A DNA stretch of 50,577 nt from Mariprofundaceae bacterium (GTDB taxonomy: Bacteria; Pseudomonadota; Zetaproteobacteria; Mariprofundales; Mariprofundaceae): assembly GCA_046756985.1 (NCBI GenBank), contig JBHHXG010000001.1, positions 1 through 50,577 of the forward strand. The letters run 5' to 3'. A program made the position numbers and the translations under genes. Each line of letters opens with the position of its first letter. Position 1 is the first letter of the stretch. Below the pieces are notes generated by a model that saw only the letters and a program-made list of their open reading frames with translations, did not search any database and was not told the origin of the DNA. Shown in pieces: positions 11,617 through 34,046 of the stretch.

Positions 11617-11702
11617 GCTATGTATCAATCGCCCCATGACGGATAACCGTATCCCCAATGTATGGCCTTGGCAAAATCAGCCACCAGGTCGGAGACAGGT
11701 AT

Positions 11703-14094: not shown

Positions 14095-17000
14095 ATGCGG
14101 ATCTTGCGTAAACAACTGATCGAACTTCTGGACCAGGCAAGACTGCAAAATCGTCTGGATGAACTTGCCCCCCGTTTGCTGGCCGCGCTGGTGCATGATT
14201 TCTTCTCGCTGCTTCCGGCCGCATGGAACAAGCACCGCCACAAAAACATTGCGCTGACCTCGCGCACAGTCAGTCATGCCAATTTGCACCGCCATATCAT
14301 CGCCGTGCGCTGTCCTGATCAGGCGTTTTATCTCGATGCCATCAAGGGCTATCTGCTTCGCCGCGGTATTCAGCCGCTGGCTCAACAGACCATGGTTGCC
14401 CGTATGGACTGTGATGACAGTGGTTGCACGCTAAGCCTGCGCAAGCCGGATAAACATGATGAAGACAATTTTATGTTTATCGCCCTGCATATTTCCGCCA
14501 CGCTGGAACCGGACCGGGACAGGCTGTCGAGAGATATCCGTGCTATTATGCAGGCTGTTGATCTGTCCGTGACCGACTTCGCCCCTATGCGCGAAATCAT
14601 TACTTCCTGTGCCGGTAAGCTGGTCGGTGAAGATTCTGATGCGGCTGCCCTGCTTGAATGGATGAATGACGACAAATACCTGTACTTCGGCATGCAAACG
14701 GAGGCAAAAAAGCTGGGGCTTGTTCGCAATCAGCAGGTTTTATCACATATCGCCCGGGGCTTGAAAGAAGAAATTGCCGCACTTGAAAGGCCCAAAAAGA
14801 CGGGGGTTGAATGGCTGCAGCTGGCGGCCAGCCAGCATTATTTATACAGCGCCGCCAGCCTGGAAGTCATGCGTATCAGCTGGCGCAACAGCAAACGGAA
14901 CAGGCTGCAAAGCACCATCGTCATCGGGCACTTTTCGCGCAGCGCCCGTCATGCCAATGCCAGCCGCATCCCGCTTCTTGAACGGTATTGGCAGGTGCTT
15001 GCCGATACCCCTCTGCTGCAGCAGTCGGCCTTCTATCGCCGTGAAATCCGCACGCTTTTTGACCGTCTGCCCAAACCAGCGCTGCTTGCCATCCCACCCA
15101 AGAGATGGCTGGAGCCGCTTAAGGCAATCGTCGATTTGGCCGGGCCCGTACAGACCATGACCAGGCAGCTGATCCCTTCTTCCGGCAATATCTCGATATT
15201 GCTTGTTGCACTGCCAGCCAACCGCTTTGGCCCCAATATCCTCGGCCAAATCCTGGAGGCGGCCCGGACCGCACACCATTTTACCGTACAAAGTCATGAA
15301 GGCTTTGGCGTAGGACCACATCGACTGCTGCTGATCAGCGCTAACAATACGCTGGCAAACGGTGAGCCTATCAAGGAAACCCACATCACCGCACTGGGAA
15401 AAACCATTCAGCAATGCGTCACTTTCTGGAAGGACAGGGCCAAAGTCGGAGTCCTGGATGCAGCCCGAAACCTTAATCTTCCTGACACCCTGAAAGAGCT
15501 CGAGCAGATATCGCCGCTCTACCAGCAACTTTTCCCACCGCATCAATTTATCGAGGACATCCGCATCAGGGATAAGGTGATCGCCAGCGGGCGGACACTG
15601 GTGCGGGCCCATGCACATGATGCCGGCATAGAGCTGCATATCTTTACACAGGCACCGCTACTGCTGGGTGAACTCGTCACCATTGTACAGGCCTTCGGCC
15701 TGACTGCCATTCAGGAGGCCGTCGTCGACTTTGGCCCCCATGACAGGCAGGTGCATCTAAGCAGCATCCGTTGCCAGACAGCGCAGGCATTTCGTGCTGA
15801 CGATGAAAAACGGCTGATGGAAGGCATGGAGCGCGTACTCAACGACGAGGCCGACAACGACCCTGTCAATGCGTTACTGCTTGCCGCCGGACTTAATATT
15901 GATCAGGTCGCTATCATCATCACGCTGCGCAATCATCTGATTCAACTGCTTGCCGATGCAGCTCCCACGCCGCTGACCGATATGCTGCGGCGACACCCGC
16001 TTGTTGCCGCAAAACTGTACCGCCTGTTTGAGGCGCGGCACCGTCCGGCAATGCCTGTAAGCTTTGAGGCCCAGTCCAGGCTTGAATTTGATAAGGCCAT
16101 GACCGGCGTACAAAACCTGACTGACGACCGCTGGTTCAGGGCGCTGGCCGAGATCGTCGATGCCAGCCTGCGCAGCAATTCATTTATGCGCGAGGCCGGC
16201 GAACCTGTTGCGATAAAGATCGATCCTTCCAGGCTCAGCTTCGCCCCCAGGCCTGCGCCCTACCGTGAGATGTTTGTGCATGGTGTGCATGTCGAGGGTG
16301 TGCACCTGCGGGCCGGACCCGTGGCCCGGGGCGGTATTCGTTATTCGGACCGCCCCGCTGATTTCCGTACCGAAGTACTTGAACTGATGGCAACCCAAGT
16401 CGTGAAAAACGGCCAGATCGTTCCGACCGGCGCCAAGGGCGGATTTGTTGTCAGAAATGGCGATGGCGAGCCCTTTGTTCGTCAGCAGTATCGCACCTTC
16501 ATTCGTGCGCTTCTGGGCCTGACAGATAACCTGGTTCATAATGAAGCCTCTCCACCCACCGGCATTCGTATCCATGAGGGAGACAGTCATGACCCCTATC
16601 TGGTCGTTGCAGCCGACAAGGGAACGGCGCGGTATTCCGATGTCGCCAATGAAGAATCCCGTCTGGCCGGATTCTGGCTGGATGATGCCTTCGCCAGCGG
16701 AGGTAAGCATGGCTATGACCACAAAGAAGTCGGCATCACGGCCAGGGGGGCGTGGATTTGCGCCGCTCATCATTTTACCCTGTTGGGTCGGAATGCATAC
16801 ACCGACCCGGTTAGCGTCGTTGGCATTGGTGATATGAGCGGGGATGTGTTCGGCAACGGCATGCTGCTGAATCCGAATATACGCCTGGTCGGCGCATTCA
16901 ATCACCGGCATATTTTTCTAGATCCGGATCCTGACCCTGAACGTTCCTATGCTGAGCGCAGACGGCTGTTTGAAGAGGCTGCTGGATGGGAGCAATACGA

Positions 17001-18714
17001 TCCGGCATACATCAGCCAGAGTGGCGGGATTTTCAAACGCCAAGCCAAAAGCATTCCTATTTCGGCGGAGGCCCAGCAGGTATTGGGCATTACGGAAACT
17101 TCATTATCAGGAGAAGCGCTGATCAAGGCCCTACTGACCGCTGATGTGGACCTTCTCTATAACGGCGGCATTGGCACCTATGTCAAGGCAAGTACTGAGA
17201 CTCACGCTGATGTTCGCGACCCGGCAAATAATGCCGTTCGTGTCGATGCCGATCAGCTCAGAGCGACAGTCATCTGTGAAGGAGGCAACCTTGGCCTGAC
17301 ACAGCAGGCGAGACTGCAATATGCTGCCAGTGGCGGGCACATCAATACGGATGCCATTGATAATTCCGCCGGCGTGGATATGTCCGATCATGAGGTTAAC
17401 CTGAAAATTCTTTTTGCATCCCGGGCAGATGACATCACACCGGCAAAGAGAAACCGTATTCTGAAAGACCTGACGGAAAAAATAACCGCCCAGTGTCTGG
17501 ATAATAACCTGTTGCAGTCACAGGCACTGACATTGGCCAGTCTGGATGCAGTGGTTCACCCGCCCCGAATCCAGCGCCTTCGCGATGAGCTATTAAGGAC
17601 AGAGCGTATAGACCCGCATACGGATCCTGATATCTGCAATGATGAATCGCTTGTCTTGCGGCCCCAGCTGGCAGTGCTTTTTGGACACGAAAAAAACCGT
17701 ATCCACGACCGACTCTCGGAAGAAGGCTTTGACCAGCATACATGTTTTCGTAGCCAGCTATTGCTTTCCTATTTTCCTGCCTCGATTCAGCGCCGTTTTA
17801 CAGAGGATATCACCGGGCATCCGCTGAGCCGCGACATTATCAATACCCGGGCCGTCAATGACATCGTCAATCATATGGGGCTGGGTGCCGTACACCATCT
17901 GGAAACACTGCTAGATAACCCGCTCTCCGACATCGTACAGGCCTTGCTGCTGACCGATGTCATCATGGACTCGGACACGCTTCGTGAGGCTATTTGGCAG
18001 CATACTTCAGACCCTGAAATTGCCAGCCAGATGCAGCGTTCATTACAGGAGCATTTGATGCATTTTGCCGAAGAGTTGTTGCGGTTGTGCACAGTGGAGC
18101 CACTGAATCAGCAGTGGGTCTTGCAACAGCGCACCGGCATGCGGCGCTTCAGGCATTCGCTGGCCGCGCAGGGCATTGGCGGTATGGAAAGCAGCCGGTA
18201 TCTGGATCTGCTCAAGACCGTCGCTCAGGCAGGCTTATCATCCGAGCATGCTGCCCATCTGGCCACCATGCCGGAGTTGGCGCAAACTGCAGCTGCCGTC
18301 CACCTGAGCGCAGACATGAATATTCCTCTGCTGCGCTGCCTCAAGGCCAGCCAGGCATGTCTGCATCTGTTGCCAATCTCCGAGGTGGAAGCGCCGCTAC
18401 GCTCGTCAGGCTGGGGAGAAGAGGAAACGCATGAATTGCGTCGCGAGTGGCTGCACCGGCTGACCCTGCTGAAAAGCCGCGCCATTGAAGACCTGTTGCG
18501 CAGTGGTTCCACAAACTTTATACGCACCGGTGAGAAATTATGGTGCTCTCACAAGCACTGGCCGGATATTGAACCCCTGCGTAAGCCTCAACTGGATGCG
18601 GTCGAGGAAGAAGGTGAAGCAAGCATGGAAATCAGCCAAATGCAGTTGTTGTTGGCATTGACACGGCTTGAGTCCATCATTGATGAAAGTGACGCCCGGT
18701 CCAAAGCAGATTGA
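14095..18714 (+). CDS. gdhB: NAD-specific glutamate dehydrogenase, large (about 180 kDa) class
   Basis: 1539 aa. The central catalytic region (GGIRYSDR, VPTGAKGGF, ADKGTA, GDMSGDVFGNGML) matches the Bac_GDH family. Confidence 0.92.
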   Translation: MRILRKQLIELLDQARLQNRLDELAPRLLAALVHDFFSLLPAAWNKHRHKNIALTSRTVSHANLHRHIIAVRCPDQAFYLDAIKGYLLRRGIQPLAQQTMVARMDCDDSGCTLSLRKPDKHDEDNFMFIALHISATLEPDRDRLSRDIRAIMQAVDLSVTDFAPMREIITSCAGKLVGEDSDAAALLEWMNDDKYLYFGMQTEAKKLGLVRNQQVLSHIARGLKEEIAALERPKKTGVEWLQLAASQHYLYSAASLEVMRISWRNSKRNRLQSTIVIGHFSRSARHANASRIPLLERYWQVLADTPLLQQSAFYRREIRTLFDRLPKPALLAIPPKRWLEPLKAIVDLAGPVQTMTRQLIPSSGNISILLVALPANRFGPNILGQILEAARTAHHFTVQSHEGFGVGPHRLLLISANNTLANGEPIKETHITALGKTIQQCVTFWKDRAKVGVLDAARNLNLPDTLKELEQISPLYQQLFPPHQFIEDIRIRDKVIASGRTLVRAHAHDAGIELHIFTQAPLLLGELVTIVQAFGLTAIQEAVVDFGPHDRQVHLSSIRCQTAQAFRADDEKRLMEGMERVLNDEADNDPVNALLLAAGLNIDQVAIIITLRNHLIQLLADAAPTPLTDMLRRHPLVAAKLYRLFEARHRPAMPVSFEAQSRLEFDKAMTGVQNLTDDRWFRALAEIVDASLRSNSFMREAGEPVAIKIDPSRLSFAPRPAPYREMFVHGVHVEGVHLRAGPVARGGIRYSDRPADFRTEVLELMATQVVKNGQIVPTGAKGGFVVRNGDGEPFVRQQYRTFIRALLGLTDNLVHNEASPPTGIRIHEGDSHDPYLVVAADKGTARYSDVANEESRLAGFWLDDAFASGGKHGYDHKEVGITARGAWICAAHHFTLLGRNAYTDPVSVVGIGDMSGDVFGNGMLLNPNIRLVGAFNHRHIFLDPDPDPERSYAERRRLFEEAAGWEQYDPAYISQSGGIFKRQAKSIPISAEAQQVLGITETSLSGEALIKALLTADVDLLYNGGIGTYVKASTETHADVRDPANNAVRVDADQLRATVICEGGNLGLTQQARLQYAASGGHINTDAIDNSAGVDMSDHEVNLKILFASRADDITPAKRNRILKDLTEKITAQCLDNNLLQSQALTLASLDAVVHPPRIQRLRDELLRTERIDPHTDPDICNDESLVLRPQLAVLFGHEKNRIHDRLSEEGFDQHTCFRSQLLLSYFPASIQRRFTEDITGHPLSRDIINTRAVNDIVNHMGLGAVHHLETLLDNPLSDIVQALLLTDVIMDSDTLREAIWQHTSDPEIASQMQRSLQEHLMHFAEELLRLCTVEPLNQQWVLQQRTGMRRFRHSLAAQGIGGMESSRYLDLLKTVAQAGLSSEHAAHLATMPELAQTAAAVHLSADMNIPLLRCLKASQACLHLLPISEVEAPLRSSGWGEEETHELRREWLHRLTLLKSRAIEDLLRSGSTNFIRTGEKLWCSHKHWPDIEPLRKPQLDAVEEEGEASMEISQMQLLLALTRLESIIDESDARSKAD

Positions 18715-18717
18715 ATC

Positions 18718-19860
18718 TTAATGCGGCCGACGCACAAGCAGCAGAGACGCTCCCTCCCGTAAAAACTGCCAGCCGGCTTTAAGTAACTGCTTCAGGCGTT
18801 TGCGGATAAAGTTGCATTTCACACAGCCACCCTGCGCCATCTGCTGGCGCACTTCATAACGTGGATAAATGGTTTCGCACCAGAAGGCCAGCCGATGCGA
18901 AAAATCCGGCTGCATGCGTGCAAACAACCGCTCGGCCAGATATGGGATGACTTCATGATTCATATGCCGCGCAAACAGCCGCCGCTCGATAAAGCCCATA
19001 TCCGGCCTGATATCATTCAGCAGACGCTCCGGCACAGAGGCCCCCAGATATTCCCCAACGTAGGCCAGCGCATAATAACAGGGCCGCTGTAGCCGGTATT
19101 CGCGGATGCCTGCCAGTACCTCATCCCATTGCCCTGCAGCATCAATGCTGTTCGCCAACAGTGCAATATCATACAGCCAGATCAGCCGCTCAAAGGAATG
19201 TTTCAGGGCATGAAAACACAGGTACGGCAGATGGACGCGTGGCGAAACAAGCAATGCCTTCTCACCTGCCAGTTCACCCTCTTCGGCATATTTGAAAAAG
19301 TCACTCGCGCGTAGCGGTGTCAGATATTGCCACGCCCGGATACGCTCCATCCCCAGGGGCTCATGATGTAAATCAAGCATGATATCGCCACGAAAATAGA
19401 TATTTCGGTAGCTCTGGTGTGGCCTGAAACCGATGTCCCACAATGCCTGCTTGGCATCGAGCATGCGTGCTTCACTCAGCAGCAGATCAATATCGCTCTG
19501 TGGACGCAGCGGCGCATTTTCACCATACAACGGTTCGGAAACCGCCAGACCACGCATACAAAGCACAGGAATACCGGTTCGCCGCAAGGCCGAAAGCACC
19601 TGTCCGCAGGCATGGCGTCGGCGCAGAAACTGGGCTGCCTGATGATACTGATTTGCTTCCGATGCTTCGCGGAACTCATGATCTGCAGCAATTTCCCGCT
19701 GTTGCTGCATGGCGGACCATAGCAACTGATCCATGCCTTCACGCATCGCCGCGCCCCATAACTGGCCGTCTTTCAGGTCTTCGGAAGACGGGGCACGGCT
19801 GGACAACAACTGGCAAAGACGACTGCGAGGCGCTAGAATTTTCATTGCTGGGACAGACAT
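18718..19860 (-). CDS. Nucleotidyltransferase family protein (PF14907-like, RiPP-associated type)
   Basis: 380 aa. MRGLAVSEPLYGENAPLRPQSDIDLLL gives the G..(n)..DxD nucleotidyltransferase-fold signature. Divergent from the Cys-rich precursor gene. Confidence 0.75.
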   Translation of the reverse strand: MSVPAMKILAPRSRLCQLLSSRAPSSEDLKDGQLWGAAMREGMDQLLWSAMQQQREIAADHEFREASEANQYHQAAQFLRRRHACGQVLSALRRTGIPVLCMRGLAVSEPLYGENAPLRPQSDIDLLLSEARMLDAKQALWDIGFRPHQSYRNIYFRGDIMLDLHHEPLGMERIRAWQYLTPLRASDFFKYAEEGELAGEKALLVSPRVHLPYLCFHALKHSFERLIWLYDIALLANSIDAAGQWDEVLAGIREYRLQRPCYYALAYVGEYLGASVPERLLNDIRPDMGFIERRLFARHMNHEVIPYLAERLFARMQPDFSHRLAFWCETIYPRYEVRQQMAQGGCVKCNFIRKRLKQLLKAGWQFLREGASLLLVRRPH

Positions 19861-19953
19861 TGATTCATAAAGCTATTCCAAAGTGAATTGTCCTGCCAGC
19901 CGGAAGGGGCCGAAAAGAACTGAAAAGGTTATTTGGCCTTGCGAGGTGAACAC

Positions 19954-20352
19954 ATGCATAAGGATAAACAGGCGGAAACAGAAAACAGTGAGTTGCATGC
20001 CCGCCGCAAGCTGCTGAAGATGGCCGCCTATGTGCCCCCAGCTATTCTCGGCGTGATGATCGCCGGCAACAAACCAGCCATGGCGGGCAAGCCACCGATT
20101 CCGGGTTCAACCAAGGTCTGCAAGGGTGGTGGCACCATTGTAATTTCTGCCGGCGGCACCGCGTGTTGTCCCTGTGTACCTACCGATCCGAAATATGACC
20201 CTTACAAGTGCGCATTGAAGAAGTGTCAGCTGGGCAATTGTGCTGCCTGTCCGGCCGTATTTGTGAAAAAGAAACACTGTCAGATCGCCGCCGCTGCATG
20301 CGGCTGCACCTGTGTTAAGGATCCCGTGACCAAGCTCTGGAGCTGCAATTAG
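19954..20352 (+). CDS. Cys-rich precursor peptide/miniprotein with twin-arginine-type signal peptide (132 aa)
   Basis: GAGGTG Shine-Dalgarno 5 nt before ATG 19954. N-terminus HARRKLLK, a 16-residue hydrophobic stretch, then NKPAMA|G. The C-terminal 88 aa carry 13 Cys (CCPC, CALKKCQLGNCAAC, CGCTC). Lies immediately upstream of a radical SAM gene. Confidence 0.75.
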   Translation: MHKDKQAETENSELHARRKLLKMAAYVPPAILGVMIAGNKPAMAGKPPIPGSTKVCKGGGTIVISAGGTACCPCVPTDPKYDPYKCALKKCQLGNCAACPAVFVKKKHCQIAAAACGCTCVKDPVTKLWSCN

Positions 20353-20369
20353 TCCTGCATTGACTATCT

Positions 20370-21530
20370 ATGCCGCACATCGCTAACTCTGTACCGGCAA
20401 TGCAATCATCGCCGCTACCGCTGTTTCTTCCCAATGGACAAGCCCTGCTGCTGCAAGCACTGGATGGGCATGTACTGAATCTGACTGGTACAGGCGAAAC
20501 CGCCCGCATAGACGGCTCGCTCGCGACCAGTGTTTCGGCATTAGCCCATGGCAAGGCGGAGACCAGAGACCGGCAACGCCTTGCCGTCCTTGAACGCCAG
20601 CATGCCTGGCTGCAGGGCCTGAGCCGGGCACAAACGACGCCGCCGCAGGGCCTTGCCCGCACACTGCTTCGCTCAGAACTGGGTATGCTATTTGTCGAAG
20701 TCACGGCAAAATGCAATGAGCGCTGCATCCATTGTTATGCCGATTCCGACCCGGATCGGACCGACTTTCTGAGCCTTGATGAAATCATCGCTGCACTGGA
20801 TCAGGCGCGTGAGTTTGGACGCGCCTTTGTCCAGTTTACCGGCGGCGATCCGCTGCTTCATTCACAGCTTCCCGAGGCTGTTGCACATGCTGCCGGGCTC
20901 GATTTTGACGGCATTGAAATCTATACAAACGGCCTGTTGCTCAATGACCGTCTGCTCGACAAACTTGCCGAATACCAGCCGCGCTTTTCGTTCTCAATTT
21001 ACGGCGATTTGCCGGATATTCATGATGCCATTACTAAGGTTCCGGGCAGCTGGAGGCGCACGCTCGACGCCATGCGACGTGCCATGCAAGCCGGACTTGA
21101 AGTCCGTGCAGGAATTGCGCTGATGCCCGAGAACATTGCCCGCGCCGAACATATGAGCGCTTTCCTTGAAAACGAACTGGGCCTGGATGAGCGCCAAATC
21201 CGTTTTGACCCGGTCAAACAGACCGGCCGTGGTCGTTTTATGGACGAAGTCACGCAGGTGCTGGTTTCACCAAACGCGCACAGCAGCAACAAGGGCTCCC
21301 GCGGCAAGCTCTGCATCAGTGCGGATGGCAATGTTTACCCCTGCATCTTCGCCCGCCACAATGTACTCGGAAATGTTCGTCAGCAGCCGCTTGCAACCAT
21401 CATGACTGCGCTGGACAGCCGTCCCCCCGTCGTACCTTCGCCTGAACGCTGGCAGCGGTGTCAACAATCGTTAAGCTGTGGCGATTGCCAGATCATTTCC
21501 TACATCATCGGAGAAGATGGCCATGAATGA
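20370..21530 (+). CDS. Radical SAM peptide-modifying enzyme with abbreviated SPASM/twitch C-terminus
   Basis: 386 aa. CNERCIHC (CxxxCxxC) at about residue 115, GGDPLL SAM-binding motif. C-terminal Cys motifs are CISADGNVYPC then CQQSLSCGDC. The N-terminal start is uncertain (20370 or 20400). Confidence 0.85.
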   Translation: MPHIANSVPAMQSSPLPLFLPNGQALLLQALDGHVLNLTGTGETARIDGSLATSVSALAHGKAETRDRQRLAVLERQHAWLQGLSRAQTTPPQGLARTLLRSELGMLFVEVTAKCNERCIHCYADSDPDRTDFLSLDEIIAALDQAREFGRAFVQFTGGDPLLHSQLPEAVAHAAGLDFDGIEIYTNGLLLNDRLLDKLAEYQPRFSFSIYGDLPDIHDAITKVPGSWRRTLDAMRRAMQAGLEVRAGIALMPENIARAEHMSAFLENELGLDERQIRFDPVKQTGRGRFMDEVTQVLVSPNAHSSNKGSRGKLCISADGNVYPCIFARHNVLGNVRQQPLATIMTALDSRPPVVPSPERWQRCQQSLSCGDCQIISYIIGEDGHE

Positions 21531-21816
21531 AATGACCGCTATCAAGGTTCCACAGCATCCAAAAAAGAAAGATGGCCTGATCGCTGAAGAGCTGGAAGGC
21601 ATGGATGAAGTAATTTTTGTAGACACTGAGTCAGGCTCAAACTTTTCGCTGAACACCATGGCCTCAGCCATTCTGGAGCTTTGTGACGGCGAACATACGG
21701 CAGACGACATTGCTACGCTGGTCTGTGATACATTCAACGGTGATATGCAGCAAATCAGCAAGGATACGCGTGCCATACTGATGGAGTTTGCCGCCTACGG
21801 CCTGTTCGCCGAATAA
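21523..21816 (+). CDS. PqqD-family protein (RiPP recognition element-like peptide chaperone)
   Basis: About 97 aa. LIAEELEGMDEVIFVDTESGSNFSLNTMASAILELCDGEHTADDI fits the PqqD fold pattern. Candidate starts at 21517/21523/21532 overlap the radical SAM stop (21528-21530). GGAG at 21509-21512. Confidence 0.8.
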   Translation: MNEMTAIKVPQHPKKKDGLIAEELEGMDEVIFVDTESGSNFSLNTMASAILELCDGEHTADDIATLVCDTFNGDMQQISKDTRAILMEFAAYGLFAE

Positions 21817-21817
21817 T

Positions 21818-22666
21818 ATGGCATGGAAACACGCCTTTCGTGTCGGTCATGTCACTGTCGGCATTGTTTCAGAGCATCCCGGGTGCAGTGATATCATTCG
21901 AACACTGATTTGCCTCTATGCAGAGACAAATGCCTCACCTGATATTCCGTTTTTCATTCGCTGCAAGGGCGATACAATCGAGCTGGCCGTGGATGACACG
22001 GTACTGTGGTCAGGTACGGATGCAGGCGAAATCGTGGCGGGCTTTGAGGTGCATCTTTATACCCGCATCCTGCAGCATCTGTCGCCTGCCTATAGCTCAA
22101 TCCATGCCTCAGCCATCAATATCGGCAACCAAGCCTGTATCTTTGCGGGCGAATCCAATGCCGGCAAAAGTAGCCTGTGTACAGCGGCTTTGCTGGATGG
22201 GGCGGACTATTTATCAGACGAATTCGCCTTACTGGATGAAAACGGCCTGATCGAGCCGTTCCCGCGTCCGTTGCAATGGGGAAAGGCCCGACATCCGGCC
22301 TTTCCCCACCATGCCATGCTTTCTGGTCATTTGTTTGCGAAAGCATATTTCCGCTTCCCCGATCATCAGGGAAAAACCGTCTGCAATCTGCTGTGGCTTC
22401 CAGCCAATGTTGAACATCAAGCGCTGCCATTGCGCTACCTATTGCTGCCGTGCTACCGGCGTAATGCACCACCTGCCGAATTAACGTCCATCCGCCGCGG
22501 CGAGGCATTGATGGCACTTCCCGAACATCTGCATCATCGCGATACGCCCGAAGCCATGTTAAAAACACTGAATCACCGCCTGCCAGAAGCCACCGAGTTT
22601 TTCCGCCTCGAATTTTCCGATGCGCATGCTGCTTACAAGGCGGTCAAGCAACACCTTTGTGCCTGA
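21818..22666 (+). CDS. HPr kinase/phosphorylase C-terminal-domain-like P-loop protein (HprK-related)
   Basis: 282 aa from the ATG 1 nt after the PqqD stop. P-loop GESNAGKSS followed by YLSDEFALLD, as in the HprK catalytic domain. Confidence 0.75.
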   Translation: MAWKHAFRVGHVTVGIVSEHPGCSDIIRTLICLYAETNASPDIPFFIRCKGDTIELAVDDTVLWSGTDAGEIVAGFEVHLYTRILQHLSPAYSSIHASAINIGNQACIFAGESNAGKSSLCTAALLDGADYLSDEFALLDENGLIEPFPRPLQWGKARHPAFPHHAMLSGHLFAKAYFRFPDHQGKTVCNLLWLPANVEHQALPLRYLLLPCYRRNAPPAELTSIRRGEALMALPEHLHHRDTPEAMLKTLNHRLPEATEFFRLEFSDAHAAYKAVKQHLCA

Positions 22667-23846
22667 CCCTGCCAATCTTCCAGACGCGTACAATGCTGCG
22701 CCAGAGCAGCGTCAGGCTGGCATGCAAATCACGCCCGTCCCATGCACCTAGACTCGCATCCAAGGCCCTGTCCCGATAACGGCGTAAGGCAGCGGTAATC
22801 ATGCTGATCTTGCGCCATAGGCCATGACAGCGTGAGGCATCTGCATCCCAATCCGGATCATGATAACAGGTGCCAATTATGCGCGTATATTCGGCTCTTG
22901 ATCGTTGCAGACAGGCCTCATCCAGTTGGGCATCTTCGGCGCACATCCTGTAATAGGCCTGCAGGAACCCTGCTCCGTCGGCCTCGGCCAGACATGTCCA
23001 GCCCGACAGGCGGGGGTTGATTTCCAGCAATTGCCATTCTCCGTTGGCATCCTGTTTGCATTCCACTTCGGCAAAGCCCTTCCAGCCAAGATGGCTCAAC
23101 AGCTCGCATGCGCCTGCATACAGCTCCGGAATCCATTCGGCCTTCGCTGCGGTGGTCTCGCCAAATGGACCATGGTGTGTTTGTGCCACCCGCTGGCGAC
23201 GACCGGTAAAGCCGCGTACCGGCCGCCCATTGTCATCAAACAGTACAATGGCTGAGGCCATACGTTCTGTTTCTCCTGCAATATAACTTTGGACGATTTC
23301 CATCTGCTCGCCATGACCTGCTTCAATCATCGGCTGCAGAAATTTTCTGAGCGCCCCTGCATCATCAAAGCGGACAAAACCATTCCTGCGGGTCTTGATG
23401 ACAACCGGAAAGGCGCAACCGCACTTTTCGTCATACAGCTCCTGCATGCTGATGACTTCGCAATCGGGCATGCGGATGATCCCTTGCGGTTGCAATTCAT
23501 GCGTCGTGATTGCCCGTCTGACCGTTTCTTGATCGGCTGAGAGAAAACGCATGCCAATATTGCGCAGCAAAGGCGCATATTCAGCCGTAAATTCCGCCAT
23601 ATCATCAACACATGGCAGCCATACGCCTTGCAGGCCTGATTTTTTCAGATTCATCGCATAGACGCCGTTGACCACCTCACCCAGGCACGGAAGTTCCACA
23701 GCTTTCTGGATATAGCGGCTTTTTTTCACCCATGGCTCCATCGGCCAACTGGTACCAATCACCGGAATGCCGGCACGCCCTGCTGCCTGTGCCAGAGCAA
23801 ACATCTGCGAATCCTGCAAATCGTGAATGACCATCGGCATGCTCAT
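22644..23846 (-). CDS. ATP-grasp superfamily ligase (COG3919-like)
   Basis: 400 aa from MSMPMVIHD. FPVVIKTRRNG, VQSYIAGE and LLEINPRLSG are ATP-grasp signatures. The start ATG overlaps the MFS stop (ATGA). The 3' end overlaps the HprK-like gene convergently by 23 nt. Confidence 0.8.
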   Translation of the reverse strand: MSMPMVIHDLQDSQMFALAQAAGRAGIPVIGTSWPMEPWVKKSRYIQKAVELPCLGEVVNGVYAMNLKKSGLQGVWLPCVDDMAEFTAEYAPLLRNIGMRFLSADQETVRRAITTHELQPQGIIRMPDCEVISMQELYDEKCGCAFPVVIKTRRNGFVRFDDAGALRKFLQPMIEAGHGEQMEIVQSYIAGETERMASAIVLFDDNGRPVRGFTGRRQRVAQTHHGPFGETTAAKAEWIPELYAGACELLSHLGWKGFAEVECKQDANGEWQLLEINPRLSGWTCLAEADGAGFLQAYYRMCAEDAQLDEACLQRSRAEYTRIIGTCYHDPDWDADASRCHGLWRKISMITAALRRYRDRALDASLGAWDGRDLHASLTLLWRSIVRVWKIGRVRHKGVA

Positions 23847-24979
23847 GGTTTTGTGGGTAACCCCCTGACCAGAAACATACCCAACAGGGCCATAGCTGCA
23901 CAGACGTAGAACGCGGCTGAATAACCCGAAGACTCGGCAATCACACCGCATCCCATGATACCCACAGCGCTGCCCAAACCAAAGCCGGATGCTGAATACC
24001 AGCCTTGCGCGGTGGCATGTCTGCCAGCCGGCGCCAGACGCTTGACCCATGTCACGGCGGAAAGATGAAAGGCTGCAAAGCTGGCTGCATGCAGAAGCTG
24101 CAGCAGGATAAGAGGCAACCAGTGCTCAAACAAACCAATGCCAAGCCAGCGCAATGAAGCCAGCAGTAAACTGCCGCCCAACACCCAGGCCGGTGCGGCC
24201 CGCTGCAACCGCCCACCCCACATCCACATCAGCACTATCTCGGCCAGCACACCTAGAACCCAGAAGGTGCCGATCTGCCAACCGAAATAACCAATCTCGA
24301 CAAGATAAAGACTATAAAAACCGTAATAGGCGCCATGCGAGACCTGCATGACAAAACTGGCTGCCAAAAGTGCGAAGAACGGCGAGCTAAACCCGGTTTG
24401 CACGCCATCCGGAAGGGTTTCTGCGTCGCTATGATCAGGAAATCCGCGCGCCGCCATTGCGGTCACAAACATCAGGCCAGCCAGCCAGTACGGAAACTGC
24501 TCCATGGCGACACCAGCCAGCCAGACCCCTCCCGCCAGAGACGCCGCAACAAATCCAACCGACCCCCAGACGCGCAAGCGGCCGTAATCGGCAAGGGCGG
24601 CTTCGGATACCGATACCGACAGCCCATCGGTCAACGGCAAGATGGCCGCCCACAATACTCCAAATATGAATATAACCGTCGCCAGCAGGTACAGATCATG
24701 CACATAGGCCATGCCCACGGCAAAGGCAGCTGCCACAACCGATGCCAGAACGATAAAGCGTTGCGACTGCTTGCCGCTGCTTCGATCCAGCACATGACCT
24801 GCCCATGGTGGCGCGATGACTTTGGCTGCTGCCAGCAGGCCAGTCATAATACCAATGGCGCTGACATCCAGCCCCTGATCCGCCAGATAAACGGGAAAAT
24901 AGGGAAGAATCAGCCCCATCGCGGCAAAATAGGCAGCGTAAAAAAGCCGGATGTGGTGCAATGAGACTGAGCTAACCAT
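23843..24979 (-). CDS. MFS transporter (MFS_1_like / HcaT-type, 12 TM)
   Basis: 378 aa. N-terminus RLFYAAYFAAMGLILPYFPVYLADQGL and about 12 hydrophobic helices. Confidence 0.85.
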   Translation of the reverse strand: MVSSVSLHHIRLFYAAYFAAMGLILPYFPVYLADQGLDVSAIGIMTGLLAAAKVIAPPWAGHVLDRSSGKQSQRFIVLASVVAAAFAVGMAYVHDLYLLATVIFIFGVLWAAILPLTDGLSVSVSEAALADYGRLRVWGSVGFVAASLAGGVWLAGVAMEQFPYWLAGLMFVTAMAARGFPDHSDAETLPDGVQTGFSSPFFALLAASFVMQVSHGAYYGFYSLYLVEIGYFGWQIGTFWVLGVLAEIVLMWMWGGRLQRAAPAWVLGGSLLLASLRWLGIGLFEHWLPLILLQLLHAASFAAFHLSAVTWVKRLAPAGRHATAQGWYSASGFGLGSAVGIMGCGVIAESSGYSAAFYVCAAMALLGMFLVRGLPTKP

Positions 24980-25053
24980 ATGGCAAGCATAACGGGGTGG
25001 ACGTGACTGTCACTGCCGCTTGCAGCACAAGCCCCTTCTGCACATATTAACGT

Positions 25054-26079
25054 ATGCCAAGCCGCTTTCTTGCCCTGCTGATCTCATGCCCATTGATGCT
25101 TCTGACTGCCTGCGGCAATGGCCATGGCCTGAATATGGCACTCGGATGGAAGGCTGAAATCATCACGGAATGGGATGATTTCCTGCCAGATATGCTGGTC
25201 CTTTCGGATGACGGACGATTTCTGTTCGCCAGCTGTGAAACCAGAGCCAATATGCTTTCACCATCGCTGGCCCGTATTGATCTGACAACAGGCACAGCAG
25301 ATATTTTGCTGTATGGCCTCGAACGTGCCGACGGACTGAAGCTGGATCAGGGCGGCAGCCTGTGGCTTGGCGAGGAAAGCAGCGATGGATTGATCTGGAA
25401 AGTCCCCGATCCTCACGCTTTTCCCGCCGGGCAGCGTATCGACCGTGTCCGCCTGACCCGAAGCAATAGCACTGTTACGCCTGTCCTTGAAGCCGGGCGG
25501 TTTGCACACGAAGGACTCTCGTTTTCAAGGAATGGCACTTATCTCTACCTTGCCGATGAGTGGATCGAAGGCTGCCTGTACCGGCTGAGTCTGCAAAGCT
25601 GGCAATTACAGGTGCTGCACAAATCCAGCGGGTGGCTTGATATCAACAGGACAGAAGAAGCGCGCCTATATGCTGAGAAAAGACATGGCCGTATCTTCAG
25701 GCGGCTGGAGGACATGGAAATGCTGCCGGATGGCCGCATTCTTCTAGCCGAAACAGGCGCCGGGGCTGAAGCCGGCCGCATTCTAGTGCTGGATGACCGG
25801 GGAGTTGCCCCTGCTATCTCAGTTTTTCTCGAGGATGCCCGCCTGCATCATCCGGACAATCTCGAATGGGACAGCAAACGAAACTGGCTGTGGATCACTG
25901 ACGACGATGAGCCTTCTGCCTTGTGGGTCTGGAATGGCAAGGACCTGCAGCGCATCGCCATGCATGACCATGCCGAAATCACCGGTGTGGAAAGCGCTAC
26001 CAACGGCGACATCTATATCAACCTACAACACCGCCGCTTCGGCTCCGACCTGACATTACGGCTGATACGGACGCACTGA
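25054..26079 (+). CDS. Lipoprotein, predicted beta-propeller fold
   Basis: 341 aa. Lipobox LLTAC. Repeated Asp/Gly/Trp-rich blade-like segments (DGRFLF, GSLWLGEE, GTYLYLADE, DGRILLAE, NWLWITDDD). Confidence 0.6.
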   Translation: MPSRFLALLISCPLMLLTACGNGHGLNMALGWKAEIITEWDDFLPDMLVLSDDGRFLFASCETRANMLSPSLARIDLTTGTADILLYGLERADGLKLDQGGSLWLGEESSDGLIWKVPDPHAFPAGQRIDRVRLTRSNSTVTPVLEAGRFAHEGLSFSRNGTYLYLADEWIEGCLYRLSLQSWQLQVLHKSSGWLDINRTEEARLYAEKRHGRIFRRLEDMEMLPDGRILLAETGAGAEAGRILVLDDRGVAPAISVFLEDARLHHPDNLEWDSKRNWLWITDDDEPSALWVWNGKDLQRIAMHDHAEITGVESATNGDIYINLQHRRFGSDLTLRLIRTH

Positions 26080-26687
26080 TGGAAGAGTGGCTGCAAATCG
26101 TTATCCGGCAGATCACGCTGTACAGTCTTCCAGTTGTGATATCCCTGTCGCTAATTGGCATGTTCGAAGCATGGCGCGCAATCCCCGAAGCATCATCCGA
26201 CCATCCGTTTTTCGCCCTGGCCTGGCAAGGAAGCTGGATGCCACTGTTGGCATCCATCGCCTTTACACGCGCAGTCATCATCGCCTTGCCACGACCCATG
26301 AACCATCATCCGCGTGCAGCCGCCAGGCGTTGTCTGGGACATATTGTACTGTGCATTGCAGGCTGGCTGATGTATGCATGGGCGCTTGGCCATCAGCCTC
26401 CGGCAGGCCTGCCCCCTTTACACCACTGGTGGGCCAAGGTCTTCATGTTTTTTAATCTGTGCATGGCCTTGATGCACCTGTTGCCGCTGCCTGGCATGTG
26501 GCTGGGTGAAATGCTGTTGGCATCCAGATTTGGAGCACCATTCTCGATGTATATAACCAGCCGGCGCAGCGTCTGGTTATATGCCCTGCTGGCGGCATCC
26601 CCGTTGCTTGATATGTCGGTCGGAGCGATTGCGATCTTTCCGGTTTACGAAGCCATGGCAGATGCCGCCTTCCATCTGGCATCCTGA
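26079..26687 (+). CDS. Membrane protein, degenerate site-2-protease (M50)-like
   Basis: 202 aa, about 6 TM. FFNLCMALMHLLPLPGMWLGEM resembles the M50 NxxxxxxNLLPxxPLDGG helix, but FEAWRA sits where HExxH is expected. TGATG overlap with the upstream lipoprotein gene. Confidence 0.5.
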   Translation: MEEWLQIVIRQITLYSLPVVISLSLIGMFEAWRAIPEASSDHPFFALAWQGSWMPLLASIAFTRAVIIALPRPMNHHPRAAARRCLGHIVLCIAGWLMYAWALGHQPPAGLPPLHHWWAKVFMFFNLCMALMHLLPLPGMWLGEMLLASRFGAPFSMYITSRRSVWLYALLAASPLLDMSVGAIAIFPVYEAMADAAFHLAS

Positions 26688-26696
26688 GATGGCGGC

Positions 26697-27452
26697 TCAT
26701 TCACACTTGGTTCGCCAGTCCACCCGTGACGCCACGACATCGCCAATGACTACAATGGCCGGGGATTGTGCTGTCAAATTTCCATCCAGCACGTCGGCAA
26801 GCGTGCCTGATGTGATCTCTTCCTGCGGCCATGTGGCGGCATAAATCACCGCAACTGGCGTCATCGTATTCAGGCCGGCTTCCAGCAGTCGCTGGCTAAT
26901 ATCGGGCAGAGAACGAGCGCCCATATAAAAGACCAGCACAGGAAAGGCCGCAACCATGGCCTTCCAGTCGATACGGCTTTCTTTACTGGCTTCATGGCCT
27001 GTCAGAAAGGCCAGTGTGCTGTTTACCGAACGATCCGTCAGGGGAATCCCCGCCATGGCCGGGGCGGCCATGCCCGAAGTGATACCGGGAATCACACGAA
27101 AACGGATACCGGCTTTTGCCAGTGTTCTGATTTCTTCGCCGCCGCGGCCAAACACAAACGGGTCGCCCCCTTTGAGACGAACCACCCGTTTATCCTCGTT
27201 CGCCAGTTCGATCAGTGTATCACAAATGTCAGCCTGATCCGCTGATTCCCTGCCGCCACGCTTTCCGGCCGGAATCAACTCGGCACCAATCGCAGCCAGA
27301 TTCAGCACCTCTTCGGACACCAGCGCGTCAAAAACGATGGCATCGCAATCACCAATCAGCTTGGCCGCCGCCAGCGTCAGTAAATCCGCAGCACCCGGCC
27401 CTGAACCGACCAGCGCCACCTCCCCGGGGCCCAACGAATCAGACAGCTTCAT
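26697..27452 (-). CDS. cobA: Uroporphyrinogen-III C-methyltransferase (SUMT)
   Basis: 251 aa. VALVGSGPGAADLLTL, RLKGGDPFVFGRGGEE and VIPGITS are canonical TP-methylase motifs. Confidence 0.92.
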   Translation of the reverse strand: MKLSDSLGPGEVALVGSGPGAADLLTLAAAKLIGDCDAIVFDALVSEEVLNLAAIGAELIPAGKRGGRESADQADICDTLIELANEDKRVVRLKGGDPFVFGRGGEEIRTLAKAGIRFRVIPGITSGMAAPAMAGIPLTDRSVNSTLAFLTGHEASKESRIDWKAMVAAFPVLVFYMGARSLPDISQRLLEAGLNTMTPVAVIYAATWPQEEITSGTLADVLDGNLTAQSPAIVVIGDVVASRVDWRTKCE

Positions 27453-28066
27453 GCTGCCTCCTTGAACAGGGATGTAATTAATTCGGCAAAATCCGAACCT
27501 TTTGAGAGCGCCGGCAGGATTTCAACATCCTCCCCTCTCGCCATGGTTGCCATCTCGTCCATGCTTTTGCCATCGAAGAGCAGCATCGGCTGCAGGCGGA
27601 TCGCGCCGACGCCATCCTCACGCCACAGCCGGATCACCGAGGCGATCGTCGGTTCGGCATGCAGGGCACCGTGCGCGACCAGCGTGCAGCGTTTGTTGCG
27701 CTCGTGCAATGCTGCATTTAGGGCCTCAAAACCGGCATAGCAGTAAAGACCAAACAGCGCGTTGACCCGCCGACCTTCTGCCGTCATCCGGTCGTAGGCA
27801 AGCTCGGCGATGCGATCCGCATGCGCGGCCAGTGACGGCAGCAGCATAGCCTGTGACTTTTCCGCCAGCTTTGGCGCATCCACCGCCCCGTGCTGTCCAT
27901 AACCAAGGAACAGCGGCAGCACCCGTGTGCCTTTGGGTAGCCACTCATCAGACAAAAACGCCGCCTTTACCTCCTCACTCAGCCGTTGCGAAACACCCGC
28001 CGCCAAAGCCCGCACCTGCTCACCGTGGCGTTGATCCGAGGAACCATGCGCCAGCAGCACAAACAT
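27449..28066 (-). CDS. cbiX: CbiX/SirB class II chelatase (sirohydrochlorin cobalto- or ferrochelatase)
   Basis: 205 aa. VLLAHGSSD and PLFLGYGQHGAVDAP in the first lobe, a second lobe LVAHGA. ATGA-type overlap with cobA. Confidence 0.75.
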   Translation of the reverse strand: MFVLLAHGSSDQRHGEQVRALAAGVSQRLSEEVKAAFLSDEWLPKGTRVLPLFLGYGQHGAVDAPKLAEKSQAMLLPSLAAHADRIAELAYDRMTAEGRRVNALFGLYCYAGFEALNAALHERNKRCTLVAHGALHAEPTIASVIRLWREDGVGAIRLQPMLLFDGKSMDEMATMARGEDVEILPALSKGSDFAELITSLFKEAA

Positions 28067-28626
28067 CAGAATTCGATTCCCTGCGTGGCCTTGATGCCCT
28101 GATCAAAGGCATGCTTGATCTTCTTCATTTCTGTCACGGTGTGCGCCATGGCGATCACTTCATCTGCAGCATTGCGGCCGGTCAGAATCACATGCATCCA
28201 TTCGGGTCGCTCCTGACGCAAAAACTCGGCAATCTCCGCGCCGCTAATCCAGCCGTAGTCACAGCAATAATTGATCTCATCCCAGACAACCAGATCATAG
28301 GCTTGTGAACGCACCTTATCCTTGCATAGCGCCCATATTTCACGGCTGGTTTGCCTGTCCTGCTCTGGGTTTTTCGTATCCCAGGTAAAGCCTTCGCCAA
28401 GCGCATGCCACTCAATTTTCTCAAAGCGTTCGGCTGCTTTCTGTTCCCCTGTCTGCCATTTGCCCTTGATAAACTGGATAACGCACACTTTCATACCCCA
28501 GGCGGCTGCACGGAATACCATACCAAAGGCAGAGGACGATTTACCCTTGCCCTCCCCGGTATTCACCACAATCAATCCCTGCCGCTTGTCACGCTGTTTC
28601 AAGTGTTCTCCTGTAGTCGGGCACAA
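28066..28626 (-). CDS. cobO: Cob(I)yrinic acid a,c-diamide adenosyltransferase
   Basis: 186 aa. GLIVVNTGEGKGKSSSAFG, VIQFIKGKW and LVVWDEINY are typical of CobO/BtuR. Confidence 0.92.
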   Translation of the reverse strand: MCPTTGEHLKQRDKRQGLIVVNTGEGKGKSSSAFGMVFRAAAWGMKVCVIQFIKGKWQTGEQKAAERFEKIEWHALGEGFTWDTKNPEQDRQTSREIWALCKDKVRSQAYDLVVWDEINYCCDYGWISGAEIAEFLRQERPEWMHVILTGRNAADEVIAMAHTVTEMKKIKHAFDQGIKATQGIEF

Positions 28627-29341
28627 TCAGTTGGCCCTCTTCCAGGCGCAGGATCGGCATATGAAACAATGCCTCAAGCCTGTCCGGAACCAGCATCGCC
28701 TCCGCATCGCCGTGAGCCACACGCCCATCGCCATAGATAAACACGACTATGTCCGCCGCACAAGCCGCCTGCTGCACATCATGCAGCACAGAAACGACGG
28801 CTTTGCCCATATCAGCCTGTTCACGCATCAGTGCAAGCCATGTGGACTGATGCCTGAGATCCAGGTGAGCCGTCGGTTCATCAAGCAGCAATACCGGACA
28901 GTCGCGCAACAGGACAGCCGCCAACTCGGCGCGCTGCCGCTCGCCGGTGGACAATTCACCCAACATGCGTGTCAGCAAATGGTCTATATCCAGTTCGGCC
29001 GCCACCTGTTGCAAGGCTTCACATTGGCCATCCTGCATGGCCAGCTCCAACCGCTGTTTCACGGTGAGGCCGAACTCTGTGGGTGGCAGCTCCCCCTGCC
29101 ATGCCAGATGCCTGGCAATATGCCTGCGGGATAATTCCCTGATATTGCTCTCTCCCAATTCGATACGCCCCGACTGAACCGGAAGCATACCGGCCAGAGC
29201 CAGCAACAGGCTCGATTTTCCCGCGCCATTTGGCCCCAATACAGCAATCACCTTGCCGGCGTCTATATTCATACTCAGCGCTTCGGCAATTGCATGACTG
29301 CCACGTGCCAGATACAGATCGTGTAGCCTGAGCATACTCAT
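28589..29341 (-). CDS. btuD: ABC transporter ATP-binding protein, cobalamin/iron-chelate type
   Basis: Walker A GPNGAGKSS, signature LSTGERQR, Walker B LLLDEP. Start at MSMLRL gives an ATGA overlap with the permease stop. Confidence 0.85.
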   Translation of the reverse strand: MSMLRLHDLYLARGSHAIAEALSMNIDAGKVIAVLGPNGAGKSSLLLALAGMLPVQSGRIELGESNIRELSRRHIARHLAWQGELPPTEFGLTVKQRLELAMQDGQCEALQQVAAELDIDHLLTRMLGELSTGERQRAELAAVLLRDCPVLLLDEPTAHLDLRHQSTWLALMREQADMGKAVVSVLHDVQQAACAADIVVFIYGDGRVAHGDAEAMLVPDRLEALFHMPILRLEEGQLIVPDYRRTLETA

Positions 29342-33960: not shown

Positions 33961-34046
33961 AAACGGGAAGCACTCTACTTTACATTAAAATAAAATCCAG
34001 CTTGAAAGGGTGTGCTTAGATGAGTTGCTTAAATGCTAAACGTGCT

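Follow-up and report, generated by a model that had tools for sequence, protein, structure and literature searches.

A conserved five-gene radical SAM, PqqD and HprK-like cassette in Zetaproteobacteria probably matures an undescribed family of secreted cysteine-rich peptides

What could be made by a locus that places a cysteine-rich open reading frame (ORF) with an apparent export signal beside a radical S-adenosylmethionine (rSAM) enzyme, a discrete PqqD protein, a kinase-like protein and a nucleotidyltransferase? This question was raised by a five-gene island in a 50,577-nt stretch of DNA from a Mariprofundaceae bacterium (assembly GCA_046756985.1, contig JBHHXG010000001.1, positions 1 to 50,577), the whole of which is called the window below; the coordinates of the island are given in Table 1. 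With a probability of roughly 0.7, we read the island as a self-contained cassette that matures Cys-rich peptides made on the ribosome and then exported, with the 132-aa ORF as the substrate. Because the five-gene cassette recurs in about 90 loci with very different cores, it probably represents an undescribed family of enzyme-modified secreted peptides, found mainly in iron-oxidizing Zetaproteobacteria.

The recurrence of the arrangement carries much of this reading. To count neighboring genes, all fetched loci (designated here by L and a number) were searched with the window proteins by tblastn, and the counts cover non-redundant loci with enough sequence on the relevant side. The rSAM gene followed the last precursor gene in 41 of 49 loci, which places the Cys-rich ORF directly upstream of its presumed enzyme and bears out the synteny expected in an earlier note on this DNA, written from the letters alone. 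The PqqD gene came after the rSAM gene in 25 of 27 loci, the kinase gene came after the PqqD gene in every locus that has the rSAM gene (27/27), and in 49 of 58 the PF14907 gene was located upstream of the precursor gene, on the other strand. The cassette arrangement recurred, with proteins 40-70% identical, in dozens of independent loci, and high-GC contigs (66-71%), several or most of them from soil, showed the same gene order at 25-43% identity together with CxP-repeat cores; the five-gene arrangement is far beyond chance. The outer limits that the earlier note had drawn around the island are matched by locus L111 (GCA_964635775.1), which has precisely these five genes amid unrelated neighbors, with Lnt and GpsA on one side and endonuclease III and PilP on the other. 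Precursor genes were present as 1-4 tandem copies per locus, plus orphan copies elsewhere in the genome, as is usual for the precursors of peptides that are ribosomally synthesized and modified after translation (RiPPs).

The upstream flank varied, with an NAD-specific glutamate dehydrogenase (NAD-GDH) gene in the window and L023 and PBP1A plus pilin genes in other loci. In the window, the NAD-GDH gene (1539 aa, 14095-18714, +) abuts the nucleotidyltransferase gene, and this junction was also observed in L023, L044, L051, L063, L072, L074, L095 and L107; since it is shared by loci whose precursor classes differ, the cores have diversified in place at one chromosomal site. Exceptions to the cassette were mainly orphan precursors, in L109 (7001-7916), L110, L018, L021, L026, L047, L055, L064 and L099, and in L109 and L110 the orphan gene sits between gatCAB and a convergent gene for a 126-aa cytochrome c. 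In L101 (214-2858), a precursor gene is followed immediately by a kinase-like gene and an ATP-grasp gene, with no rSAM or PqqD gene detected between them by tblastn, which may reflect a deletion or a fault of the assembly. In the high-GC locus L086 (1605-3773, -), the cassette adjoins a Wzc/EpsG-type polysaccharide tyrosine autokinase/chain-length determinant (TIGR01007, 195 bits); a PqqD-kinase fusion suggested there by a long ORF was ruled out, the two tblastn matches lying in different frames.

The precursors themselves provide the second line of evidence. The window core is Lys/Gly-rich, holds 13 Cys and carries the motif C71-C72-P73-C74-V-P76 (nt 20164-20181), which consists of two overlapping Cys-x-Pro units. 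An invariant S65-A-G-G precedes this motif, with Ser65 six residues ahead of it; this Ser does not vary within the window's subfamily and is conserved to at least 90% in the family as a whole. Among 76 close homologues, of which the named ones are Zetaproteobacteria, from Mariprofundaceae or Ghiorsea metagenome-assembled genomes (MAGs), about 12 Cys are conserved together with the segment S65-A-G-G-x-A-C-C-P-C. A scan of GTDB species representatives yielded 12 loci, all from Zetaproteobacteria, and a profile search of 1.84 billion representative proteins gave 66 precursor matches. When a metagenome collection was scanned with a hand-made degenerate DNA pattern for RRxLLK-x3-Y-x-PP-x3-G, 85 loci were recovered, about 78 of which encode true members of the precursor family; L025, L056, L058, L066, L075, L079, L093 and L096 were false pattern loci and were rejected as precursors. 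Distant precursors share ARRRLLKLGAYVPPAI.G plus the AxA site, with a leader of the form ARRxLLKxxAYVPPAILG, and have unrelated cores, among them GSCxPSACxPC with Lys-, His- or Asp-rich tails, SCCPSACxPC and runs of CxPxxC. Across the family, C-x-P-C was found in 197 of 222 unique precursor sequences, all of the 129 unique database precursors (129/129) contain between 1 and 10 C-x-P units, and short cores resembling classical RiPP cores are included. What makes the precursor family look RiPP-like is that the leader is conserved, the cores vary strongly and a short motif is repeated. The earlier note had spoken of a secreted miniprotein system; the 132-aa ORF stands as the substrate candidate, not as one odd miniprotein but as a member of a leader-defined family with highly variable cores.

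The leader appears to be a twin-arginine translocation (Tat) signal peptide. A long polar n-region is followed by the twin-arginine motif A-R17-R18-K-L-L-K, by a moderately hydrophobic h-region of 14-16 residues (MAAYVPPAILGVMIAG, hydropathy maximum ~2.1) and by the c-region N-K-P-A42-M-A44, which provides the basic K40 and an AxA site; judged by eye, the leader matches the Tat consensus of S/T-R-R-x-F-L-K, a mild h-region, a basic c-region and AxA. The h-region carries an invariant Y26-x-x-P29, in Y26-V-P-P29, and the segment holding RR, Y26 and P29 reads ARRKLLKMAAYVPPAILGVMIAG. Among close homologues the leader is nearly invariant (RRxLLKMAAYVPPAILGVMI), and R17, R18, L21, Y26, P29 and G33 remain invariant into distant family members, forming, together with C71 and P73 of the core, the family-wide invariant positions of the broad alignment. 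From one core class to the next, the AxA site stays in place while the residues that form it change. Two weak matches were seen in individual members of alignment A4, one to a formate-dehydrogenase TAT-target model (E 0.097) and another to TIGR04117, 'Cys-Xaa-Xaa-Xaa repeat radical SAM target protein' (E 0.029), neither of them significant. The h-region is conserved far beyond that of ordinary signal peptides, and recognition elements of the lasso, PqqD and StsC groups recognize YxxP or, in its broader form, W/Y/LxxP/L/I (PMC12710340). Because the h-region is both highly conserved and furnished with Y-x-x-P, we propose that the PqqD protein binds inside the signal peptide. The description of the substrate as a 132-aa protein with an export signal is thereby refined: the Tat-type features are present, and the same leader also holds a recognition-type motif.

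To identify the enzymes, domain calls were made with hmmscan against Pfam and NCBIfam release 20, and scores were set against curated cut-offs. The nucleotidyltransferase matched PF14907 with 123.4 bits (cut-off 31.2), and a G...DID motif was read in its translation. The rSAM protein matched PF04055 (Radical_SAM) with 95.4 bits and PF13186 (SPASM) with 29.7 bits (cut-off 21.5). Its cluster motif CX3CX2C (C115-x3-C119-x2-C122) is invariant in 32 homologues (alignment A3), and its tail, in which conserved Cys are confined to C315-x9-C325 and a following C364-x5-C370-x2-C373 (same alignment), reads as a reduced SPASM or twitch-like domain. The three best NCBIfam scores of this enzyme were 86.6 for TIGR04053 (cut-off 395), 85.4 for AhbC (650) and 84.9 for StsB (625), that is, 4-8 times short of the cut-offs; MoaA models scored 58.6-67.8 (231-325), PqqE 47.3 (381), MftC 52.5 (265) and AlbA 46.9 (850), and anSME was absent among the best 25 matches listed. 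As no NCBIfam cut-off was reached, the enzyme lies outside the families with a known unrelated substrate, of which MoaA, PqqE and anSME had been named in the earlier note. The nearest PDB sequences were BlsE (52 bits) and SkfB (39 bits). Residues 1-100 (20370-20680) form a conserved, family-specific domain with the consensus ...SGxFAxSL...RLxxLExQHPWLxGLSxA; these N-terminal ~100 aa gave no match in Pfam or NCBIfam and could be a second peptide- or PqqD-binding module.

The PqqD protein matched PF05402 with 48.1 bits, and its NCBIfam matches to lasso, pyrroloquinoline quinone (PQQ), ScmD and GeoRSP PqqD models were weak and about equal, the best being lasso_PqqD_Strm (26.2 bits, cut-off 70). 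The kinase-like protein had no Pfam match in hmmscan and no match among PDB sequences, and scored 54.8 bits for TIGR04352 (HprK_rel_A, cut-off 200; 28-64 bits at other loci). It carries the Walker A motif GESNAGKSS, and G116, K117, S118, D134 and E135 are invariant (alignment A2). Its AlphaFold model had a predicted local distance difference test (pLDDT) value of 95.9, and in Foldseek this model matched ATP-PEPCK (E ~4e-7, TM 0.5-0.62) and HprK/P (E ~5e-4). The TIGR04352 score, the Walker A and Asp-Glu residues, the model pLDDT and the fold matches are the reasons for which this fifth protein is placed in the HprK/PEPCK kinase fold, which it is predicted to adopt. The kinase homologue of L039 matched Pfam Hpr_kinase_C with 22.9 bits, and precomputed annotation assigns Pfam PF27840 (ScmC) to some homologues. 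None of the five proteins reached the cut-off of a named family in NCBIfam release 20. Agreement between hmmscan and the fold search thus upholds the identities proposed earlier, namely a PF14907 protein, an rSAM enzyme with a SPASM-type tail, a PqqD protein and an HprK-like P-loop protein. Neither an Asn-synthetase-like lasso cyclase nor a transglutaminase-like protease was encoded within ~8 kb on each side (genes 14095-28066); as the earlier note had stated for the island, both are absent, and the same holds for the homologous loci and the minimal cassette of L111.

Taken together, these features suggest a course of maturation in which leader residues 1-44 would play two roles, as Tat signal and as PqqD recognition element. 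In the cytoplasm, the PqqD protein would bind the leader and hand the core to the radical SAM/SPASM-like enzyme, which would modify the Cys-x-Pro units (CCPCVP in the window), most likely by Cys-derived thioether cross-linking. We make this chemistry our first choice, at odds somewhat short of even, because a Cys-rich substrate and a SPASM-like enzyme are combined with an rSAM/discrete PqqD layout like that of StsB/StsC; a weak pointer to the chemistry is that StsB, a maturase of sactipeptides that is partnered by a discrete PqqD protein, ranks in the top three rSAM matches. The HprK-like kinase may then phosphorylate a hydroxyl side chain, with the invariant Ser65 as a candidate site, and the PF14907 enzyme may add a nucleotidyl or glycosyl group to the phosphate, by analogy with PsmK/PsmN. 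Upon release of the leader by the PqqD protein, the finished and partly folded product would exit via Tat and be cut by signal peptidase I, a route that fits the reading of the leader. Leader removal and export are assigned to general machinery because the five-gene unit comes without a protease and a transporter. The proposal can be extended to a new RiPP class in which the PqqD-recognized leader is the Tat signal itself, the PqqD protein gates export in the manner of TorD- and NapD-type chaperones, which retain Tat substrates until these are mature, general Tat and signal peptidase replace a dedicated protease and transporter, and the product is a Cys-x-Pro-cross-linked, phosphodiester-bearing, periplasmic or secreted, metal- or redox-active peptide of iron-oxidizing Zetaproteobacteria; in this complete form we regard it as conceivable and rather doubtful. 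The metal or redox role is speculation, hinted at by the His-rich cores of relatives and by the fixed position of the cassette in the core genome of iron-oxidizers.

Several observations weigh against the account given above. The rSAM tail has five conserved Cys as opposed to the seven of a full SPASM domain, and the sequence scores do not separate thioether formation from other radical chemistry. A C-terminal Ser, the residue targeted by lasso kinases, was present in 8 of 129 precursors; because it is not conserved, the phosphorylation site must differ from that of the lasso kinases, and Ser65 in this role is a guess only. In the AlphaFold model of the precursor, residues 80-132 were confident, with a helix-helix-hairpin arrangement (pLDDT 78-93), and residues 49-80, which hold the motif, were not; the C-terminal half of the window core is predicted to self-fold and may thus make a small protein rather than a peptide natural product, and Foldseek gave no PDB match for this model below E 3.9. 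The sequences establish the gene content, the enzyme families with their catalytic motifs intact, how leader and core are conserved, and the co-occurrence of the cassette genes; the pairing of the substrate with its enzymes, the reaction types, the route of export and a metal-binding or redox role of the product are what we infer from them, Tat export being read from motifs. Neither of the Tat-signal models, TIGR01409 and PF10518, matched in the precursor family, nor did any other Pfam or NCBIfam model match it consistently. The major facilitator superfamily (MFS) transporter gene is a frequent neighbor (13 of 19 loci), and its product could serve as exporter. Finally, most loci come from one bacterial class, so that the synteny partly reflects shared ancestry.

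The lack of a match to a Tat-signal hidden Markov model would also suit a RiPP cassette whose leader serves recognition only, with no involvement of Tat and with export and cleavage performed by other machinery, such as the neighboring MFS transporter and an unlinked protease. Conservation of the h-region is what would be expected of a binding epitope, and where the MFS gene is present, in those 13 of 19 loci, it comes after the kinase gene. We nevertheless consider this improbable, since the canonical Tat features co-occur and hold their positions while nearby residues change, the MFS gene is missing from L111 and the high-GC loci, and no protease travels with the cassette; MFS_1_like/HcaT-type carriers, moreover, transport small molecules, which counts against the MFS protein as a peptide exporter. 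A cofactor pathway of the PQQ/mycofactocin kind would instead treat the precursor as a sacrificial scaffold, in which the rSAM/PqqD pair would cross-link a few residues, with an excised piece processed by the kinase and nucleotidyltransferase into a small redox cofactor. PQQ and mycofactocin synthesis are typified by a PqqD protein paired with a SPASM-type rSAM enzyme, and the window rSAM protein weakly matches both families, but the scores for the PqqE, MftC and PqqD models lie far under cut-off and the cassette comes without a peptidase, oxidase or other excision enzyme. Only the small motif CxP(C) is universal, leaving the remaining core free to vary, and the locus is fixed in the core genome of many Zetaproteobacteria in a housekeeping-like manner, both of which would suit a cofactor; the leader, however, resembles a cleavable export signal that a cytoplasmic scaffold would not need, and the presence of 1-10 CxP units in cores whose tails are rich in His, Lys or Asp, or which include a domain confidently predicted to fold, suggests that the whole peptide is the product. 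We therefore hold a cofactor pathway to be distinctly improbable.

It is harder still to regard the Cys-rich protein as an ordinary Tat-exported metal- or Fe-S-binding protein, with the enzymes unrelated to it or acting elsewhere, for example on a cell-envelope polymer. Adjacency, strand order and translational coupling are kept over 25-70% identity and in varied contexts, and the conserved leader, highly variable cores and tandem copies are the signature of RiPP precursors and not that of a metalloprotein. Tat commonly exports cofactor-loaded Cys-rich proteins, orphan precursor genes without enzymes nearby do exist, and one high-GC locus adjoins a Wzc-type polysaccharide tyrosine kinase, all of which would agree with such a protein; to our knowledge, though, PqqD proteins have no role besides peptide presentation, and we judge this explanation very improbable.

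With regard to the island in the window, the earlier description of four packed plus-strand genes with a 17-nt gap, an rSAM/PqqD overlap and a 1-nt PqqD/kinase spacing, and of a divergent PF14907-type gene across a shared 93-nt region, agrees in every point with the sequence and its coordinates (Table 1). The PqqD ATG lies inside ATGAATGA, with an 8-nt overlap with the end of the rSAM gene and a GGAG 9 nt upstream, and the same overlap coupling was present in L006, L010 and L023. The kinase-like gene begins at a TAA-T-ATG junction, and a Shine-Dalgarno sequence, GAGGTG (19943-19948), lies 5 nt before the precursor ATG. Identical DNA was found on five Logan metagenome contigs, where independent gene calls gave the same five genes; gene callers start the nucleotidyltransferase 5 codons later, resulting in 375 aa. 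In an alignment of 10 loci, the divergent intergenic region showed a partly conserved box, CCAGCC-GRAA, ~55 nt 5' of the precursor ATG, with CCAGCC invariant or nearly so (alignment A5). A TTTAG-N-CTAAA palindrome occurs in this region in most other loci and is weak in the window; box and palindrome may constitute a shared regulatory site. A promoter and terminator scan of the island gave no signal over shuffled background. The 3' ends of the kinase-like (+) and ATP-grasp (-) genes overlap by 23 nt (22644-22666), as they also do in L006 and L010, and because of this overlap a terminator between the two convergent genes has no room.

Table 1. Positions of the island, its parts and the two adjoining genes in the window
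Feature	Position (nt)	Strand	Description
PF14907 (NTP_transf_5) nucleotidyltransferase-fold gene	18718-19860	-	380 aa; ATG at 19860-19858; divergent from precursor operon
Divergent intergenic region	19861-19953	.	93 nt
Precursor gene	19954-20352	+	132 aa; 13 Cys; ATG at 19954; stop 20350-20352
Precursor leader, residues 1-44	19954-20085	+	Delimited from sequence and family alignment
Precursor core, residues 45-132, and stop codon	20086-20352	+	Delimited from sequence and family alignments
Precursor-to-rSAM gap	20353-20369		17 nt
Radical SAM gene	20370-21530	+	386 aa; TGA stop 21528-21530
PqqD-family gene	21523-21816	+	97 aa; discrete RiPP recognition element; TAA stop 21814-21816
P-loop kinase-like gene (predicted HprK/PEPCK fold)	21818-22666	+	282 aa
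Divergent ATP-grasp gene	22644-23846	-	400 aa; convergent with kinase-like gene
MFS transporter gene (MFS_1_like, HcaT-like)	23843-24979	-	Translationally coupled to ATP-grasp gene

Two genes adjoin the island downstream. The ATP-grasp protein gave weak ATP-grasp matches and, in a PDB sequence search, D-Ala-D-Ala ligase only (E 4e-4); its gene was present in 11 of 19 loci and in none of L023, L111 and the high-GC loci. The MFS transporter matched Pfam PF12832 with 206.5 bits, and as a conserved neighbor its gene is confined to the marine loci. Both were considered as core parts and ruled out by their absence from L111 and the high-GC loci (for the ATP-grasp gene also from L023); they are lineage-specific neighbors outside the core cassette. 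The Zetaproteobacterial MAG locus L008 (8001-15724; L009 and L019 lie on its contig) encodes three paralogous precursors and two paralogous ATP-grasp proteins, and two of its precursor genes sit between the ATP-grasp genes and the MFS gene, a layout from which the ATP-grasp protein may act on peptides in some lineages. Further downstream, a cobalamin-related gene run (TP_methylase, CbiX-like, CobA/CobO and ABC ATPase; 26697-31779, -) is accompanied by a TonB-dependent receptor gene (31691-33625, -) with a cobalamin riboswitch upstream of it (RF00174, 109.6 bits, 33769-33976, -), and this region is an ordinary locus for the uptake and salvage of B12. At 10243-11658 (-) and 34047-35993 (-), the window encodes two large Sel1-repeat proteins, of which one also has DUF2846 and both are apparently unrelated to the island.

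In the searchable full-text literature, no paper describing the combination of rSAM, PqqD, HPr kinase and nucleotidyltransferase was found, and the pairing of PqqD with an HPr kinase was found only in lasso-peptide papers. As a kind, a RiPP-type system is already known; what is new is the joint occurrence of four traits, namely a recognition motif embedded in a Tat-type leader, the CxP unit, a kinase and nucleotidyltransferase in an rSAM pathway, and the lack of a dedicated protease and exporter. If our reading is correct, a leader doubling as Tat signal would couple maturation of the peptide to proofreading at export, and it would account for a RiPP cassette that has neither a protease nor a transporter of its own. 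A tailoring pair of kinase and nucleotidyltransferase, so far known from lasso peptides only, would have been recruited to a radical SAM pathway, and the minimal modification unit would be Cys-x-Pro, of which cores that are otherwise unrelated carry 1-10 copies. The cassette is stable in many genomes of the Zetaproteobacteria, a group that is hard to culture and important for marine iron cycling, and with several cores being His-rich, the products may be relevant to the handling of metals. For mining, the leader motif offers a simple handle as well, since a single degenerate DNA pattern was sufficient to recover the ~78 loci.

Among known systems, phosphorylated and phosphoglycosylated lasso peptides (paeninodin with its kinase, pseudomycoidin with PsmK/PsmN) resemble the cassette in having a discrete PqqD-type element and a YxxP leader motif, and both lasso-type B1 features, a PF05402 protein and the YxxP motif, are present here. 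In lasso systems, the linear precursor is phosphorylated by HPr-kinase homologues, and hexose is attached to the phosphate by PsmN, an annotated nucleotidyltransferase (PMC8498205, PMC9266682). An HPr-kinase homologue and an annotated nucleotidyltransferase likewise occur together in the cassette, a likeness to the lasso tailoring pair at the level of annotation. In contrast to the lasso systems, the cassette has a radical SAM enzyme in place of the lasso cyclase and B2 protease, its C-terminal Ser is not conserved, and its leader would double as export signal. Streptosactin StsB/StsC, of the sactipeptide/ranthipeptide kind, shares with it an rSAM enzyme with a C-terminal Fe-S domain, a PqqD-like protein encoded separately and a Cys-containing precursor next to them, whereas the cassette adds a kinase and a nucleotidyltransferase, comes without a peptidase or ABC exporter, has a twin-arginine-type leader, and encodes an rSAM protein that scores far under the StsB cut-off and ends in a five-Cys tail.

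HPr-rel-A (TIGR04352 with TIGR04353) and SynChlorMet (ScmC/ScmD/ScmE/ScmF) are uncharacterized, bioinformatically defined systems that pair an HprK-like protein with PqqD, and the SynChlorMet cassette also has rSAM/SPASM enzymes. TIGR04352 is the sole NCBIfam match of the window kinase, yet this match and that of the PqqD protein to PqqD_rel_X (TIGR04353, 18.0 bits, cut-off 35) fall under their cut-offs. The same is true of ScmD (24.8 bits, cut-off 100), ScmE (52.6, 400) and ScmF (57.4, 400); for ScmC there was no NCBIfam match with the window kinase-like protein, and 22.8 bits against a cut-off of 125 in L086. A different resemblance, which we treat as a lead only, is to anSME, a SPASM-type rSAM enzyme that acts on the Cys of a C-x-P-x-R motif: the universal unit of the cassette family is C-x-P and many short cores read C-x-P-S-A, with the sulfatase Arg missing. 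Bufferins, as Sec-dependent RiPP precursors with a signal peptide, set a precedent for the kind of precursor proposed here (PMC11626156, PMC12710340). They are copper-binding, and like the cassette family they have Cys-containing precursors that start with a signal peptide in place of a classical leader, are exported to the periplasm (proposed for the cassette) and are widely conserved rather than strain-specific; some cassette-family cores are His-rich, hinting at metal binding as in bufferins. Where bufferins use a Sec signal and an MNIO enzyme, the cassette has a Tat-type signal with a recognition motif, an rSAM enzyme, a kinase and a nucleotidyltransferase, and no DUF692/MNIO or DUF2063 domain was found in any gene of the island or related loci. 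With the lasso enzymes absent and the HPr-rel-A, Scm, PQQ, MoaA and curated sactipeptide maturase models all under cut-off, the combination fits no characterized RiPP class, as the earlier note had concluded. Collectively, the cassette is closest in working logic to the sactipeptide/ranthipeptide systems for its rSAM-PqqD part, to paeninodin and pseudomycoidin for its kinase-nucleotidyltransferase part and to bufferins for its signal-peptide precursor, and the NCBIfam HPr-rel-A family is closest in sequence to the window kinase.

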